From an uncultured bacterium (GTDB taxonomy: Bacteria; Patescibacteriota; Minisyncoccia; UBA6257; 2-01-FULL-56-20): DNA of 64,000 nt. This document shows positions 1 to 8,886 of this stretch, piece after piece. Positions within the stretch are counted from its first letter, which is position 1. Each line of letters starts with the position of its first letter. The notes beneath the pieces are model-generated. The model made no database searches and was not told the origin of the DNA. It saw nothing but the letters and a program-made list of their open reading frames with translations. The stretch is taken from the NCBI GenBank assembly GCA_963718575.1, contig OY970358.1, forward strand, positions 386,172 to 450,171. Direction: 5' to 3'. A program made the translations under genes and the position numbers.

Positions 1-488
1 TTCTTGAAGTCGTGCGTCCCGGCCCAACCGTAGGCGATCAATTCATGGGCGGGAAGATAATCTTTCCTGCCGATAACAGCATTGCTCTTAAGCCAAATGA
101 GTAGCTGAGAAAAATGCACGCCAGCCCGTTCCATGCCGTCGCGAAGCGCAAAAAGCATCTTATCCGAGTTAAAAATATAGACGGTGTTCTTGCGCTCAAG
201 ATGGGGCACGATCGCAGACAGCCACTCAGCCGTAAAGCGAGCGTACTCGCTCTCGGAGGCAAAGTTGTCGTTCAAGATATTTTTTGCCACTCTGATCTTT
301 GCGAATCCCGCCTTCGATTCCGCATATGCTACGGAATATGGAACGTCGCAACAGACGAGTTTTATTTTCCGCTTCCCGACGAGCCGATTCACAAGATCGG
401 CATCGCGGGCATCTGCGCACATGAGCAAATGATTTCCAATGCGGAACGCATCCCCATATTCTATTTTTTTAATTGAGTTTTTTGGCAT
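1..488 (-). CDS. DNA methyltransferase (N6-adenine/N4-cytosine class), partial; runs off window start
   Basis: Minus-strand translation from ATG at 488-486: MPKNSIKKIEYGDAFRIGNHLLMCADARDADLVNRLVGKRKIKLVCCDVPYSV... has a DVPY (DPPY-like) catalytic motif and an N-terminal pattern typical of N4/N6 MTases. It overlaps the stop of the upstream MTase by 20 nt and is absent from the ORF track because it is truncated by the window edge. Confidence 0.6.
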   Translation of the reverse strand, partial: MPKNSIKKIEYGDAFRIGNHLLMCADARDADLVNRLVGKRKIKLVCCDVPYSVAYAESKAGFAKIRVAKNILNDNFASESEYARFTAEWLSAIVPHLERKNTVYIFNSDKMLFALRDGMERAGVHFSQLLIWLKSNAVIGRKDYLPAHELIAYGWAGTHDFK

Positions 489-2512: not shown

Positions 2513-3190
2513 ATGCTGATAAAGAAAATCGGGCATTGCTGCCTCCTTATAAGATCCGGATCGGGCGACAACCCGTTGATACTAACCGATCCCGGCTCGT
2601 TTTCCGTCGCGCAAAATAAGCTGCGAGGCATTGATGCGGTTCTTATCACGCACGAGCATGAGGATCACCTGCATATAAAATCGCTGCAGGAAATTCTCAA
2701 AAATAATCCACACGCGGAAGTGATCGCGAACGAAGGGGTCGGCAAAAAACTCGATAAAGTTAATATACCGCATCGTCGCATGCGCGATCGGGATACCGCT
2801 GAGATCAAGCGCGTTTCTATTGAAGCGTATGATGCCAAGCACGAAGAAATTTTCGAAGAGATCGGGCAGGTTCAAAATACCGCATTCCTCATCGCCGGAA
2901 AGCTCCTCATCCCCGGCGATTCGTTTTTCAAGCCGCCCACGTTCGTCGACATCCTCGCTCTTCCCGTCGCCGGACCGTGGTGCAAAATCGGCGATGCAAT
3001 CCGGTATGCGCTCGATGTGCATCCTGCGATAGCATTCCCGATCCACGATGGCATGCTCCAGCGCGATCGGGTCGGAGCGGCCTTTCGGATCCCCGAACAG
3101 GTATTAAAGAAGAACGATATTAACTTCGTAACGCTGGAAGAAGGGCAAGAGCATAATTTTTTATTCGCGGGATTTAAAGATGAGAAATAA
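2513..3190 (+). CDS. metallo-beta-lactamase fold hydrolase
   Basis: The ITHEHEDH (HxHxDH) zinc-binding motif is present, with downstream His/Asp residues (PIHDG). Confidence 0.7.
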   Translation: MLIKKIGHCCLLIRSGSGDNPLILTDPGSFSVAQNKLRGIDAVLITHEHEDHLHIKSLQEILKNNPHAEVIANEGVGKKLDKVNIPHRRMRDRDTAEIKRVSIEAYDAKHEEIFEEIGQVQNTAFLIAGKLLIPGDSFFKPPTFVDILALPVAGPWCKIGDAIRYALDVHPAIAFPIHDGMLQRDRVGAAFRIPEQVLKKNDINFVTLEEGQEHNFLFAGFKDEK

Positions 3191-3247
3191 ATATGACCAT
3201 GCCAACAAATAACTCTTCATTGAACCCTCAGCGAGCACGGCGCGAGT

Positions 3248-3309
<62 letters not shown>

Positions 3310-3329
3310 AATCCTTGGATGAATTTTTA

Positions 3330-4355
3330 TTAGCTTCCGGCCGCCCATTTGTTTTCTTCCCTGAACCAAAAAGGAAATTCTTCTTTGATGTGCTGAGCGA
3401 GACGCGCCGCGTTGCCGTGCGTGAGCATTCCCGCATACGACGCCACCGCCTGTTCGGTGGGATTTTCTCTCAGGCCGCGAAACATTCGCTTCTTGCTCGC
3501 CGTCCGCACGACGCGATGATCGGGAAAATGAATCCATCCGAGGAAATCGATGCCCGAGGCGAAACTCTTGATATAAACTTTATCGGGATGAAGGGCAAGC
3601 TTGAGCCGCTCGCCGAGAAATACGCTGATCTGCGGCATCAGATTTTCCAGGTACCGTCTGTCGCGAGAAAGTATTGCGAAATCGTCGGCATAACGGAGAT
3701 AGTACGCTATCTTCAGCTCGCGCTTCATAAATTGGTCGAATTCATTCATATAAATATTCACAAGAAGTTGCGAGGTAAGATTGCCGAGCGGAAGCCCCAC
3801 GCCCGGCCTCGTCGACGAGAAGCTCCCGATCACTTCTCCGAGAAGCCATCGGATTCCTTCGTCGGAAATCCGGCGGTGCAAAATTTCCGAAAGCACGCCA
3901 TGGTCGATTGTCGCGAAGAACTTCCGGATGTCGCATTTCAAGACCCAGACCGTTTTCGTATGATTCGCGCTCTCCTTGCGGGCGAACGAATCAAAACAAT
4001 CCAGCGCCCTATGCGTTCCCTTGTCGACGCGGCAGGAATACGAGTGAGAGATAAACGTTGTATCGAAGAACGGATAAAGCCTTCTATAAATGGCATGATG
4101 AAGCAAGCGATCCCGCACGGACGCCTTATGGATATTGCGCGGCTTCGGGTCGCAGATGTTGAACGCACGATACGGCCCATGCCGATACGAATGAGAAATG
4201 AGATCCCGATGGAGCAGGAAGATATGATCCATGAGGCGCAGCGAGAATTCCTGAACATCGGGTTTATTCCGCTTGCCGACAATGAATTCCGTCCACGCCT
4301 CCAAAAGATTTTCGACGCTCGCGATATCTTCGAGCGTACCCTGAAACTGAATCAT
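3330..4355 (-). CDS. diversity-generating retroelement (DGR) reverse transcriptase
   Basis: The RT motifs appear in the correct order: SYSCRVDKGTHRAL (DGR-type motif 2), LPLGNLTSQ (the DGR-specific [ILV]GxxxSQ in place of QGxxxSP) and YLRYADDFAIL (catalytic YADD). The 341-aa size is typical of DGR RTs, and TR/VR repeats lie adjacent. Confidence 0.88.
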   Translation of the reverse strand: MIQFQGTLEDIASVENLLEAWTEFIVGKRNKPDVQEFSLRLMDHIFLLHRDLISHSYRHGPYRAFNICDPKPRNIHKASVRDRLLHHAIYRRLYPFFDTTFISHSYSCRVDKGTHRALDCFDSFARKESANHTKTVWVLKCDIRKFFATIDHGVLSEILHRRISDEGIRWLLGEVIGSFSSTRPGVGLPLGNLTSQLLVNIYMNEFDQFMKRELKIAYYLRYADDFAILSRDRRYLENLMPQISVFLGERLKLALHPDKVYIKSFASGIDFLGWIHFPDHRVVRTASKKRMFRGLRENPTEQAVASYAGMLTHGNAARLAQHIKEEFPFWFREENKWAAGS

Positions 4356-4364
4356 GTATAAAGT

Positions 4365-4766
4365 ATGAACGAAACAACGCCAATTCCCAACCGTGCGACG
4401 CTGCCGATCCTGAAGCGGCTGATTACGGTATATAAATCATGGCATGAGACGATGCCCAATCTCGCGAAGACTTCGCGCTATACTTTGGGCGAGAAAATCG
4501 ACGCGCACCTCCTTGAGGTAATCGAACTTGTTTACACGGCAAGCTTTTTGCCGAAGGAGGAGAAATTACCGCTCCTGCAGAAAGCGATGGCGAAAACCGA
4601 TCTTCTCAAATTCTTCTTCCAGATAGGCTGGGAAATAAAATCGCTCGATGTCAAAAAATATATCGCGTTTTCTGAACAGCTCGATGAGATAGGCAGACAG
4701 CTCGGCGGATGGGCGCGGCAGTCGGCACAAAAAGAAACTCCCGCCCCCAAACGAGGGCGGGATTGA
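4365..4766 (+). CDS. avd: Avd-like accessory variability determinant (four-helix-bundle protein, TIGR02436-like)
   Basis: This 133-aa helical protein has a C-terminal LDEIGRQLGGWARQ resembling the bAvd C-terminus IAEVGRILGSWIAR, with matching overall helix periodicity. It lies between the TR and the RT but on the opposite strand, with its start codon 9 nt from the RT start. Confidence 0.65.
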   Translation: MNETTPIPNRATLPILKRLITVYKSWHETMPNLAKTSRYTLGEKIDAHLLEVIELVYTASFLPKEEKLPLLQKAMAKTDLLKFFFQIGWEIKSLDVKKYIAFSEQLDEIGRQLGGWARQSAQKETPAPKRGRD

Positions 4767-4777
4767 AACGAAGAGGG

Positions 4778-4910
4778 TTGCGCGGGCGGACGCCAGCGAG
4801 GACGCAGTTGTCGTTGAACCTGTTGTCGGGATAGTTCAGGTTGAGCTTGCGGTACTTAGCGTTGCGGTTCAAGTACACGATGCGACGGTTGCGGTTCGGG
4901 TCCAGCCAAG
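4778..4910 (-). repeat. DGR template repeat (TR), 133 bp
   Basis: It aligns base for base with 5309..5441 (offset 531). It has A on the minus (coding-sense) strand at all 16 mismatch positions and reads as AAC-rich codons in the target frame (LNRNAKYRKLNLNYPDNRFNDN). An A-free GC-rich 28-nt tract lies at its 3' end. Confidence 0.88.
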
Positions 4911-5228
4911 GAATGTGCGGAAAGTCATCTGCGCCACCGCCTCTCGGTGCCGGGCGAGAAATCTCGAAGCCGACAGCTTAAGGCTGAATCGAATTTGGAA
5001 TGTCCCCGTGAAGGTAATTCTCCAACTTCCCGCACCAAGCATCCTCGATTTCAAAAACATCAAGAGTCACACTGGAATGAGGCGTACCCGATTCCACTCC
5101 GGACTCTTGCGATGCTGGGTTCGACCGCCCGAAGCCGTAGCCGCAGGCATGCTGATCTACTTCCTGATAGTAATTGTGAGCCATTTTTATAAAAAAATAA
5201 AATCGGAAGACAAGTTCAAAAAAGAAAT

Positions 5229-5252
5229 GCCCGTTCCAAAATCGGAACGGGC
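5229..5252 (-). terminator. hairpin (9-bp stem gcccgttcc/ggaacgggc) followed by a T-run on the minus strand; terminator of the DGR target gene and possible DGR-associated stem-loop
   Basis: Inverted repeat read from the sequence. On the minus strand it is followed by tttcttttttg. It lies 46 nt 3' of the target-gene stop, between VR and TR. Confidence 0.5.
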
Positions 5253-5298
5253 AAAGGGACTGAGGGTCAAAAATCCAGAGGGCGAAAGCGCTTCAGTT

Positions 5299-5931
5299 CT
5301 AAGACTGTTTGCGCGGGCGGACGCCAGCGAGGACGCAGCCGCCGTCGAACCTGTCGACGGGATAGAACAGGTCGAGCTCGCGGTACTCAGCGCCGCGGCG
5401 CAAGTACACGATGCGACGGTTGCGGCTCGGGTCCAGCCAAGCTTCGTGCAGGAAGATCACGAACGGCTTCTTTCCGGAAGTCGTCGCTTTCCCGTGCTGC
5501 TCGGCGAAACGGATGCCGTGCTCGTACGTCGGGCGAAGCAGACCCTTCTCTTTCAGGATCGCAAGACCTTCTTCTTCGCTGAAGCTCTTGCCGGGGTCGA
5601 CGATTTCGATCTCGTCATCCCACGGCGTTTCGGAGGCTGTCAGCGGGAAGTTGGCCTGCGTGATCCAGTCGTTGAAGGGAAAGCCCAGCGCGGCCGTGAT
5701 CTCGTCGGTGTTGTTCGACCCGCCCATCTTCACCGTGAAGACAGAGGGGTCGAAGCCGAGAACCTTCTGAAACTCGTCTCGGTTGACCTTTGTCGGGTCG
5801 AGTTCCGCAGCGCAGCGCCGAAGATCGGTGAGAAGTCCGGAAGCAATCAATGCTTGAAGCTGACCGGACTCAAGGGTTTCAAACAGTTCGGCAAGATGCT
5901 TGCCTTGGGAAAGGGTAGCGGTCGTTGTCAT
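5299..5931 (-). CDS. DGR target (variable) protein, 210 aa, C-terminal VR-encoded domain (possibly a C-type-lectin/FGE-like fold)
   Basis: An AAGGAG RBS lies 6 nt upstream of the ATG at 5931. The C-terminus WLDPSRNRRIVYLRRGAEYRELDLFYPVDRFDGGCVLAGVRPRKQS is encoded by the VR. No signal peptide was recognised. Confidence 0.8.
   Translation of the reverse strand: MTTTATLSQGKHLAELFETLESGQLQALIASGLLTDLRRCAAELDPTKVNRDEFQKVLGFDPSVFTVKMGGSNNTDEITAALGFPFNDWITQANFPLTASETPWDDEIEIVDPGKSFSEEEGLAILKEKGLLRPTYEHGIRFAEQHGKATTSGKKPFVIFLHEAWLDPSRNRRIVYLRRGAEYRELDLFYPVDRFDGGCVLAGVRPRKQS
5309..5441 (-). repeat. DGR variable repeat (VR) at the 3' end of the target gene
   Basis: It is 117/133 identical to the TR, and all 16 differences map to TR adenines (coding strand A to G at 12, A to T at 3, A to C at 1). 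It encodes the C-terminal 44 aa of the target protein and ends 8 nt before the stop. Confidence 0.88.
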
Positions 5932-6102
5932 ATGCAACTCCTTCTGCTAGTCCACCGTTTGGATTTTTTGATTGGCGGGTTATAGCTTTCAGGCCGCGAG
6001 ATGGCTCATGGGCTGGAAGCTATAACCGCACCTTGGTTTATTAAAGAACGCTATCATTATACTATTATCAGAAATGCTTGTCAATGGCTCGGTTTTTTGT
6101 AT

Positions 6103-7005: not shown

Positions 7006-7584
7006 ATGAAAAAAAATAAAATATCTGCAAAGAATCCCACGCGCATTGGCGCGGATTTTTTCGATCGGCTGTGGCAGAAGAGCTGGACATATATCAAGAC
7101 CGTTGTTGATGTGGTGCGCGAACCGGTGCTCGTGCTCGACAAAGACCTTCGCGTAATGGCGGCGAACGATGCGTTCTATGAAACGTTCAGGGTTAAATCG
7201 AAAGAAACGGAGGGAAATATCGTGTATCAACTCGGCGACGGCCAGTGGGATATTCCCTCATTGCGAAAACTTCTTGAAGATATCCTTGCGCATAATACTT
7301 TCTTCAAAGGATTTCAGGTCGCCCATGAATTCCCCGGGATCGGGCGCAAGGTGATGATATTGAACGGACGACAGATCTATATTGAAGATTATGATAAAAA
7401 GGACTCGTTCCCGCCGATCATCCTGCTCGCCATCGAAGACGTCACCGAAATGATGGTGGTCGCCGAATCGCTTGCGAGCCACAACGATCAGATTGAAGCA
7501 AAATTCGTCATTCGCACGCAAAGATTGGAGGCACAGATCGAAAAAATGGAGCGGGAGATCGCCAAGCTCAAAAAACGGGCATAA
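7006..7584 (+). CDS. PAS-domain protein with C-terminal coiled coil (paralog 1)
   Basis: The PAS-fold core is REPVLVLDKDLRVMAANDAFYETF...GQWDIPSLRKLLEDIL, and the C-terminus is a heptad-like IEKMEREIAKLKK. It is about 78% identical to the ORF at 8302..8886. Confidence 0.6.
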   Translation: MKKNKISAKNPTRIGADFFDRLWQKSWTYIKTVVDVVREPVLVLDKDLRVMAANDAFYETFRVKSKETEGNIVYQLGDGQWDIPSLRKLLEDILAHNTFFKGFQVAHEFPGIGRKVMILNGRQIYIEDYDKKDSFPPIILLAIEDVTEMMVVAESLASHNDQIEAKFVIRTQRLEAQIEKMEREIAKLKKRA

Positions 7585-7746
7585 GATCGCATCTTGCCAG
7601 AATCACGTTCGCGTGGGATTCTTAGGGTATCATCGTAATCTCGTTGTAACGGCGACCTCCGCCGTGCGCGCCATTTGCCCTATCTATTACCTTGCCGGGG
7701 TAATATTCGTGTCACAGAACACCGTCATCATCGGCTTATATACGTA

Positions 7747-8271
7747 ATGACTCCCAAACAGGAGGCAAAACGGCAGGCGGCGTTGACAACTGCACACCAC
7801 GACTACGGAAGGGGGCTCCATTTGTATGCATTTTTCAAAGTGCGCAATCGCGCCGTAAGCGAGGACCTGGTACAGGACACGTTCATAAAAACGTGGGGGT
7901 ATTTGGTAAGGGGGGGCAAAGTGGTGGTCATGAAGGCATTTCTCTATCACATCCTCAACAATCTCATCGTGGATGAATATCGAAAGCATAAAACTGTCTC
8001 GCTTGATGTCCTGCTCGAAAAAGGATTCGAACCGAAAGCGCTGCACTCCGGATCCCCTCGCCGCCTTTTTAATTTTTTAGACGGGAAAGCGGCGCTCATT
8101 TTGATCCAGCGTCTTCCGGAAAAATATCAGATGGTGCTACGCATGCGTTATGTACAAGACCTATCACTCAAAGAAATCTCGCTCATCACCGGGCAGTCAA
8201 AAAATACCATTGCGGTCCAGATACACCGCGGGCTTGAACGACTGAAAGAGCTCTACAATCCTTCGGTGTAA
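7747..8271 (+). CDS. ECF-type RNA polymerase sigma-70 family factor
   Basis: Region 2 is EDLVQDTFIKTWGYL...LYHILNNLIVDEYRKHK and region 4 is LSLKEISLITGQSKNTIAVQIHRGLERLKE. The start was chosen at the ATG at 7747 (MTPKQ). Confidence 0.75.
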   Translation: MTPKQEAKRQAALTTAHHDYGRGLHLYAFFKVRNRAVSEDLVQDTFIKTWGYLVRGGKVVVMKAFLYHILNNLIVDEYRKHKTVSLDVLLEKGFEPKALHSGSPRRLFNFLDGKAALILIQRLPEKYQMVLRMRYVQDLSLKEISLITGQSKNTIAVQIHRGLERLKELYNPSV

Positions 8272-8301: not shown

Positions 8302-8886
8302 ATGGAAAAAAACAAGCGAGGTGAAGGACAAACCATTAGCCCTGTCGGTGCCGATTTTTTCGAGCGCCTCTGGGAGGAAAGCTGGACGTATATTAAAACC
8401 GTCGTTGACGTCGTGCGCGAACCCATTTTAATCCTCGATAAAGACCTTCGCGTGATGGCGGCAAACGAATCCTTCTATAACACATTCCAGGTGGAATCAA
8501 AGGATACCGAACATAAGATCGTGTATGAGCTCGGCAACGGCCAATGGAATATCCCCTCCCTTAAAAAACTCCTGGAGGATATTCTTCCCAAAAACACGTT
8601 CTTTAAGGGCTTTGAGGTCGCCCATGATTTTCCCGCGATCGGCCGCAAGATCATGATCCTTAATGCCCGCCAGATACACGTCGCCGCGAATGCCGCCGCG
8701 CCGCTCTTTCCGCCCATCATCCTGCTTGCCATGGAGGACGTGACGGATATGATGGCGGTCGCAGAGACGCTCGCCAACCACACAACCCAGCTTGAATCAA
8801 AACTCACAGAACGAACACAGATCCTCGAGGCGCGCATCGGAGATCTGGAAAAGGAGATCGGCAAGTTGAAAAAGGCGGCCATGTAA
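8302..8886 (+). CDS. PAS-domain protein with C-terminal coiled coil (paralog 2), candidate partner or anti-sigma of the adjacent ECF sigma
   Basis: Paralog of 7006..7584, located immediately downstream of the ECF sigma gene. Confidence 0.55.
   Translation: MEKNKRGEGQTISPVGADFFERLWEESWTYIKTVVDVVREPILILDKDLRVMAANESFYNTFQVESKDTEHKIVYELGNGQWNIPSLKKLLEDILPKNTFFKGFEVAHDFPAIGRKIMILNARQIHVAANAAAPLFPPIILLAMEDVTDMMAVAETLANHTTQLESKLTERTQILEARIGDLEKEIGKLKKAAM

Follow-up and report, generated by a model that had tools for sequence, protein, structure and literature searches.

The stretch analysed here, referred to as the window, comprises 64,000 nt of the genome of an uncultured Patescibacteriota bacterium (assembly GCA_963718575.1, contig OY970358.1, positions 386,172 to 450,171) and carries a locus with the parts of a diversity-generating retroelement (DGR). 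On the minus strand lie a reverse transcriptase (RT) gene, a template repeat (TR) and a target gene that ends in the corresponding variable repeat (VR); avd occupies the plus strand between the RT gene and the TR, and the space between the TR and the target gene holds a region that comparative analysis points to as a structured RNA domain, called the leader in the following. Features and coordinates are collected in Table 1. The locus was compared with related cassettes and with contigs of the same strain; the latter came from other JGI and ENA metagenome samples, and their DNA was compared directly.

Table 1 Features of the DGR locus, in order of position in the window (IMH, initiation of mutagenic homing; ORF, open reading frame)
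Feature	Position	Strand	Remarks
DGR reverse transcriptase	3330-4355	-	341 aa; RVT_1 E 3.8e-22; motifs LGNLTSQ and YADD
avd (accessory variability determinant)	4365-4766	+	133 aa; PF22296 bAvd 46.1 bits (cut-off 40)
Terminator-like hairpin after TR	4739-4762	-	10-bp stem, then GTTTCTTTTT; 15 nt past TR, inside avd 3' end
Post-TR segment UCUUCGUUUC	4765-4774	-	proposed partner of leader strand
Template repeat (TR)	4778-4910	-	133 nt, 32 A; from alignment; same in all same-strain contigs
A-free, GC-rich 28-nt tract at TR 3' end	4780-4807	-	VR copy at 5311-5338; IMH-like by position
Structured RNA domain (leader)	4915-5164	-	250 nt, directly 5' of TR; predicted from covariation
Leader strand GAAAUCGAGGA	5042-5052	-	proposed partner of post-TR segment
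Terminator-like hairpin after target gene	5228-5253	-	11-bp stem, then T-run TTTCTTTTTT
Target gene	5299-5931	-	210 aa from ATG 5931, AAGGAG upstream; mechanical ORF start is TTG 5937
Variable repeat (VR)	5309-5441	-	133 nt; codes for the last ~44 residues of the target
Promoter-like site of target gene, TTGACA-17-TATAAT	6056-6084	-	12/12 consensus match; predicted from consensus only

The TR and VR align without gaps at an offset of 531 nt. They differ at 16 positions, every one of which is an adenine of the TR on the coding (minus) strand, and 16 of the 32 TR adenines are thus altered in the window's VR (12 to G, 3 to T and 1 to C). An earlier reading of the window from its letters alone (the sequence-only reading) had listed these positions and this base spectrum; both were reproduced exactly, each mismatch being a T on the plus strand. 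Given the base composition of the TR, the probability that 16 of 16 mismatches fall on adenines is 3.4e-12 (hypergeometric). The translations given there for the target frame, ...YLNRNAKYRKLNLNYPDNRFNDNCVLAGVRPR for the TR and ...YLRRGAEYRELDLFYPVDRFDGGCVLAGVRPR for the VR, are likewise correct, as is the count of 7 AAC codons in that segment; the 134-nt stretch that we scored holds 10, including one that runs across base 4777 at the 3' boundary. When the repeats were extended, non-A differences appeared outside them only: the first base on the 3' side (4777) is C in the TR and A at the VR, and the 5' flanks diverge right after 4910. Such differences are normal where a TR/VR pair ends, and adenine specificity is not violated by them. 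A repeat search with A positions masked found no second VR in the 64-kb window. Both repeats end in the A-free 28-nt tract CTGCGTCCTCGCTGGCGTCCGCCCGCGC (TR 4807->4780, VR 5338->5311), for which an IMH-like role had been proposed. That part of the proposal stands which concerns the tract itself, since it is real, A-free and located where an IMH is expected; its role in homing is putative.

All neighbours expected of a DGR adjoin the repeats, namely an RT, Avd and a target with a predicted C-type-lectin fold, so that the reading of the pair as TR and VR holds. The best match of the window's RT among solved structures is 8ub7_A, the 328-aa reverse transcriptase of PDB 8UB7-8UBE (E 3e-44), compared with E ~1e-20 for group II intron and retron RTs of solved structure. 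We take the 8UB7-8UBE enzyme to be bRT of the Bordetella phage, with which its length of 328 aa agrees. The DGR-clade motifs LGxxxSQ and YxDD are both found in the translation. All RT models of NCBIfam, a set that holds no dedicated DGR-RT model, stayed below cut-off, and more than 500 relatives of the RT at 60-86% identity are present in metagenomes. Avd, which occurs in most but not all DGRs, additionally matches NF033474 (DivGenRetAVD) with an E-value of 1e-18 at 67.5 bits, under the cut-off of 80. The avd gene is divergent from the RT gene (9-nt gap) and convergent with the TR RNA, and has the same position and orientation in every related RT locus with upstream sequence; the order target-VR, TR, (avd), RT is uniform throughout this RT clade. 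We considered the opposite-strand avd as a novelty and rejected it, as the TR-(avd)-RT arrangement is already known as architecture B3 of Wu et al. 2018 (PMC5758913). Also rejected was an overlapping gene in the 371-codon frame 3246-4361 (+), which lies opposite the RT gene and shares the reading frame of avd; it is interrupted by 12 stops on average in relatives, is free of them in the window alone, and is most likely open by chance. A narrow and not conclusive search of IMG/VR with two peptide patterns, for relatives that would indicate a phage origin, returned none. About 40 nt past the RT stop codon, right after a GC hairpin, lies a (CT)20 repeat (3251-3290; (AG)n on the RT strand). Its length differs between contigs (20 units in the window, 23 in the same-strain contig L001 and at least 22 in L004), and a 19-unit CT run occupies the same place in L024, an 86%-identical relative.

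The target protein consists of an N-terminal helical region followed by a domain that is predicted to adopt a C-type-lectin fold and ends in the VR, which encodes the final strands of this domain. The VR is in frame at the 3' end of the gene, with A at codon positions 1-2, and the protein family as a whole is hypervariable at the AAC-codon columns and conserved in the framework. Compared with TvpA of Treponema denticola and other C-type-lectin-fold variable proteins of DGRs, the target is small, has the N-terminal helical region and lacks a Pfam match to FGE-sulfatase or DUF1566. No signal peptide was apparent by reading the sequence, to which no prediction tool was applied. A GC-rich inverted repeat downstream of the VR, known from about one third of DGRs, is present as the 11-bp hairpin at 5253-5228. 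It starts ~55 nt after the VR, has counterparts after the VR in the related cassettes L017 and L035, and resembles a terminator because a T-run comes after it. Between the promoter-like site and the start codon of the target gene lies a further inverted repeat (5978-6027; 23 nt, 83% complementary, 4-nt spacer), which could be an operator or a hairpin in the 5' untranslated region.

Evidence on turnover comes from other samples. Clustered at 90% identity, the target protein groups with four others, in which residues 1-166 are identical to those of the window and the VR alone differs. On the DNA level, the same-strain contigs contain five VR alleles besides that of the window, six in total, and the TR is unchanged wherever a contig includes it. 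Over ~13 kb aligned, mismatches among these contigs number 81 inside the VR versus 3 in the 12,408 nt outside it, from which it follows that the VR turns over much faster than background mutation would allow. Across the six alleles, 79 of 82 substitutions fall on TR adenines (3 elsewhere), and 25 of the 32 adenines carry a substitution in one allele or more. The preference recurs in related cassettes (21 of 21 TR/VR differences at adenines in L017 and 23 of 26 in L035, whose three exceptions all lie at the extreme 3' end). The claim of the sequence-only reading that the element has been active is thereby borne out by an identical TR accompanied by five other VR alleles, with variation almost wholly inside the VR. 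Judged by the diversity of alleles across samples, the element appears to be active or to have been so very recently.

We are therefore highly confident that the locus is a complete chromosomal DGR of the known TR-(avd)-RT type in a Patescibacteria host, with adenine-directed rewriting of its VR. Information flows in one direction and adenine-specifically, from an invariant TR to a variable VR, beside an RT and Avd. No reverse transcription would be required if an ordinary duplicated segment had diverged through point mutations or damage biased to one strand, or if a silent cassette had acted as donor in gene conversion of the antigenic-variation type, and the share of A->G among the window's changes (75%) could suggest a deamination-type bias. 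All three alternative bases occur, however, and hits are confined to A (P 3e-12); one copy stays constant from sample to sample, the changes being limited to the other; conversion from a single donor cassette could not yield six different alleles; and the adjoining DGR-type RT and Avd are co-conserved in more than 500 loci. Because the pattern is one-directional and adenine-only, we consider ordinary divergence and cassette conversion excluded, with a residual probability close to nil.

More weight attaches to the idea that the TR and VR record past activity of an element that no longer works, and it is set out here together with further observations that weigh against the DGR reading. Three same-strain contigs from three assemblies (L004, L006 and L008) share a 273-nt deletion (window 4150-4422) that removes the first ~68 RT codons, the first ~19 avd codons and everything between, including both start codons, and joins an antisense frame to the remainder of avd. 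These contigs bear three different VR alleles, and sample ERZ27250198 holds an intact (L003) and a deleted form (L008) together, so that some cells of the population lack a working element. In three further contigs, one of the same strain (L001, 1-210) and two of a single relative (L025, 2025-2600; L026, 5-430), the VR is joined straight to the TR 3' flank and avd, and the leader and the 5' part of the TR are gone; the repeat in L025 and L026 looks diversified in its 5' half and like an unmutated TR in its 3' half. Such joins are either deletions by VR/TR recombination, which leave no TR RNA gene, or assembly collapses. Moreover, of the 14 genome loci that encode a target homologue, 12 lack an RT, a TR and a leader within 5 kb, and activity of the window's element is deduced from VR alleles in other samples, not from this genome itself. 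The A-free tract, finally, cannot by itself tell donor from recipient, being the same in TR and VR; the signal that distinguishes them was not found in it. For this reason, whatever marks out the VR as the recipient must be located in the flanks, which differ from the first base beyond the repeats on, and the residual similarity of the 3' flanks (6 of 9 after a 1-nt shift, by eye) is too weak to interpret. As Wu et al. 2018 (PMC5758913) point out, some DGRs have an identical IMH and IMH*. Against a defunct element stand the intact ORFs of the window, including an RT with both motifs kept, the unchanged TR, and six VR alleles on backgrounds differing at only 3 of 12,408 other positions. A relic state is thus true of some cells in the population, but for the window's copy we judge it very unlikely.

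The RT-less target homologues (L010-L016 and L019-L023) have VR-equivalent columns as variable as those of the DGR-linked copies, and the metagenome-assembled genome YP3.bin32 contains two RT-less target paralogues on different contigs. A DGR at another place in the genome may act on these homologues in trans; alternatively, the copies may be frozen.

The leader became apparent from comparative analysis only. Folding the region as a single sequence gave nothing, and a global fold of the TR with its flanks, tried as a candidate structure, was discarded as no more stable than shuffled sequence (z 0.43). A five-sequence profile (nhmmer) located the leader right upstream of the TR in most related loci, even though their RTs are no more than 60-65% identical in protein sequence, and a 34-sequence profile found it in 49 of 50 distinct loci with at least 850 nt upstream of the RT. 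In the window, the latter profile recovered one copy (5164->4914) and no second template RNA. RNAalifold, applied to a plain MAFFT alignment, predicted 50 pairs, 43 of them with compensatory changes. Standard pairs form in 95.5% of alignment cells, compared with 73% in shuffled alignments and 42-48% when partners were slid, and 433 cells are changed on both sides (130 shuffled, 66-99 slid). None of 500 shuffles reached any of the observed measures, and in the window itself, 49 of the 50 predicted pairs are standard ones. Two hairpins of similar form, each with a UACG tetraloop at its tip, are part of the predicted fold, as is a 12-bp helix (5035-5024 with 4926-4915), the closing helix of the domain's 3' half. 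In the window, the TR starts 4 nt past this helix; in the four cassettes that have a VR, TR/VR homology starts 4-5 nt after it.

At the gathering threshold, no family of Rfam 15 matches the leader region in a search of the whole window, and a search of 4650-5320 with Rfam 15 (including the RT-1 to RT-19 motifs) at E<=10 returned terminator-like sub-threshold matches only. We found no description of this RNA in the literature, although Paul et al. 2017 (PMC5436926), which lay outside our search, may have one; the domain is apparently undescribed. In one related locus from a metagenome (L057), two leader copies on opposite strands, 2864-3078 (-) and 226-436 (+), flank the RT gene, which suggests a second template RNA or a second cassette.

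The arrangement of signals around the TR suggests that it is transcribed as a separate non-coding RNA of ~440 nt with its own promoter and terminator. This RNA would comprise, downstream of the promoter, the 250-nt structured 5' domain, the TR, a short conserved tail and the terminator hairpin. An extended -10 box (TGnTAnnnT) lies just upstream of the leader in 27 of 34 cassettes, and behind the TR, 35 of 49 relatives have a hairpin with a T-run at the corresponding site according to a strict scan, the hairpin sequence varying; hairpin and T-run overlap the last avd codons on the other strand. No terminator is present between the leader and the TR in the window. Directly after the TR, most relatives share a conserved motif (...CTCTTCATTTCTC). 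Its window copy (4774->4765) is complementary to an A-rich strand of the leader with the consensus AAAUGAAG[A/C] (window 5052->5042). Over 30 cassettes, 89% of cells of this proposed duplex are paired, with 18 double changes compared with 5.2 after shuffling and 1-8 after sliding. These data lend modest support to a pairing of the leader strand with the sequence just 3' of the TR, weaker than that for the internal helices.

The locus invites comparison with the DGR of Bordetella phage BPP-1 (mtd-VR, avd, TR, brt). Both share adenine-specific transfer from an AAC-rich TR to a VR at the C-terminus of a C-type-lectin-fold protein, Avd together with a compact RT, and repeats whose 3' end is GC-rich and A-poor. 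Whereas BPP-1 is a phage, the window's element is chromosomal in a Patescibacteria genome; its IMH-like tract, unlike that of BPP-1, is the same in TR and VR, and its target has no detectable sequence similarity to Mtd. The main difference concerns the RNA. In BPP-1, a 140-nt spacer follows the TR, whereas the window has a terminator-like hairpin 15 nt after the TR and a large structured RNA 5' of it. The Bordetella spacer envelops bRT and lies on Avd via a tetraloop-capped stem; with the TR 3' end it forms a short duplex in which an adenosine 2'-OH primes synthesis, and with sequence 5' of the TR an 11-bp duplex that stops it (bioRxiv 10.1101/2023.10.23.563531). In the window, the space 3' of the TR is filled by antisense avd and the terminator, and the 5' domain offers a counterpart for each of these elements, with the stop-like helix lying within the 5' domain instead of between upstream and downstream segments as in BPP-1. 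With the Rfam RT-10 motif and the BPP-1 spacer RNA (Weinberg et al. 2017, PMC5737381; Handa et al., bioRxiv 10.1101/2023.10.23.563531), the leader has in common that a structured RNA is attached to a DGR TR, with ~9-bp tetraloop-capped stems, one duplex that adjoins the 5' end of the TR and another, short one at its 3' end. It differs in lying 5' rather than 3' of the TR, and shows neither sequence nor covariance-model similarity to them. Gene order, orientation, host radiation and unannotatable targets are shared with the DGRs of architecture B3 from the candidate phyla radiation (CPR); the available text of that survey (Wu et al. 2018, PMC5758913) describes neither a structured RNA on the 5' side of the TR nor a promoter and terminator of the TR's own.

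The element most probably works as follows. The TR is transcribed and copied into cDNA by RT and Avd with misincorporation opposite template adenines, and the cDNA then takes the place of the 3'-terminal VR of the target gene. Up to ~16 codons on the ligand-binding face of the C-type-lectin-fold protein could be recoded in this way, with the invariant TR preserving the master copy. By analogy with Bordetella, the 5' domain might serve as a scaffold that binds RT and Avd, its 12-bp closing helix 4 nt before the TR might mark the point at which cDNA synthesis stops, and the A-rich strand, paired just 3' of the TR, might set up priming. The A-free tract would then give a faithfully copied cDNA end for homing. 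Whether the 5' domain is the functional equivalent of the Bordetella phage spacer in permuted order is, in our estimate, a matter of roughly even odds. For the broader proposal, we remain tentative and rate it a little below an even chance: that throughout this large Patescibacteria DGR clade, the template is a free-standing ~440-nt RNA gene with RT/Avd-binding, priming and stop elements 5' of the TR, a permuted counterpart of the Bordetella TR-spacer RNA and an RNA class not in Rfam.

Several points weigh against this proposal. The roles assigned to the RNA domain are drawn from analogy alone; compensatory changes in the pairing between leader and post-TR sequence occur at 4 pairs only, and the post-TR segment was placed by motif match in that test; and the promoter of the TR RNA is weak in the window, where the -10 box is degenerate, as in L018, and no consensus promoter for this RNA was matched on the minus strand. 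One may also suppose that the 250 nt upstream of the TR are no part of the template RNA at all and represent an independent small RNA, a cis-regulatory leader or a gene of 68 aa. A 68-aa ORF (5184->4978) is indeed open in the window, and the terminator-like hairpin that parts the region from the target gene could make it a unit of its own. As an accessory gene, however, this ORF was dismissed: it has no Pfam match, and it is interrupted or startless in L017 and L018, whose nucleotide sequence over the region is nevertheless conserved (77-84% identity). Variation in the domain follows compensatory base pairing and not a codon-like pattern. A separate transcript fits poorly with a domain that always lies on the TR strand, ends 4-5 nt before the TR with no terminator in between, and has one strand that covaries with sequence 3' of the TR. 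The sole related cassette without the domain has also lost the 5' part of its TR. We therefore regard a unit independent of the template RNA as unlikely, though less so than a relic state of the window's element.

DGRs are abundant in the CPR, and the TR/VR element itself is textbook DGR biology, one more active member in a DGR-rich lineage. What the contigs add is a clean natural record of DGR turnover, in which one strain, sampled in several metagenomes, differs almost solely in the 133-nt VR, and in which alleles without the RT and avd starts, or possibly without the TR, occur in same-strain assemblies. To our knowledge, DGR reverse transcription has been modelled mechanistically for a single phage only, in which the essential RNA is located 3' of the TR. 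With another RNA that is arranged differently and has identifiable equivalents (stems capped by tetraloops, a helix that adjoins the TR on its 5' side and a duplex at its 3' end), one could test directly which features of the RNA are indispensable, and an RNA of the window's type would also supply a compact, self-contained template RNA for engineering. If the permuted arrangement is real, DGR ribonucleoproteins were rebuilt on at least two occasions around a common RT-Avd core.

Farther along the window, two paralogous genes of ~190 aa (7006-7584 and 8302-8886), neither with a Pfam hit on record in matching contigs, contain repeat segments with 71-76% DNA identity whose starts lie 1299 nt apart. 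The pair flanks a sigma-70-family gene (7675-8271).

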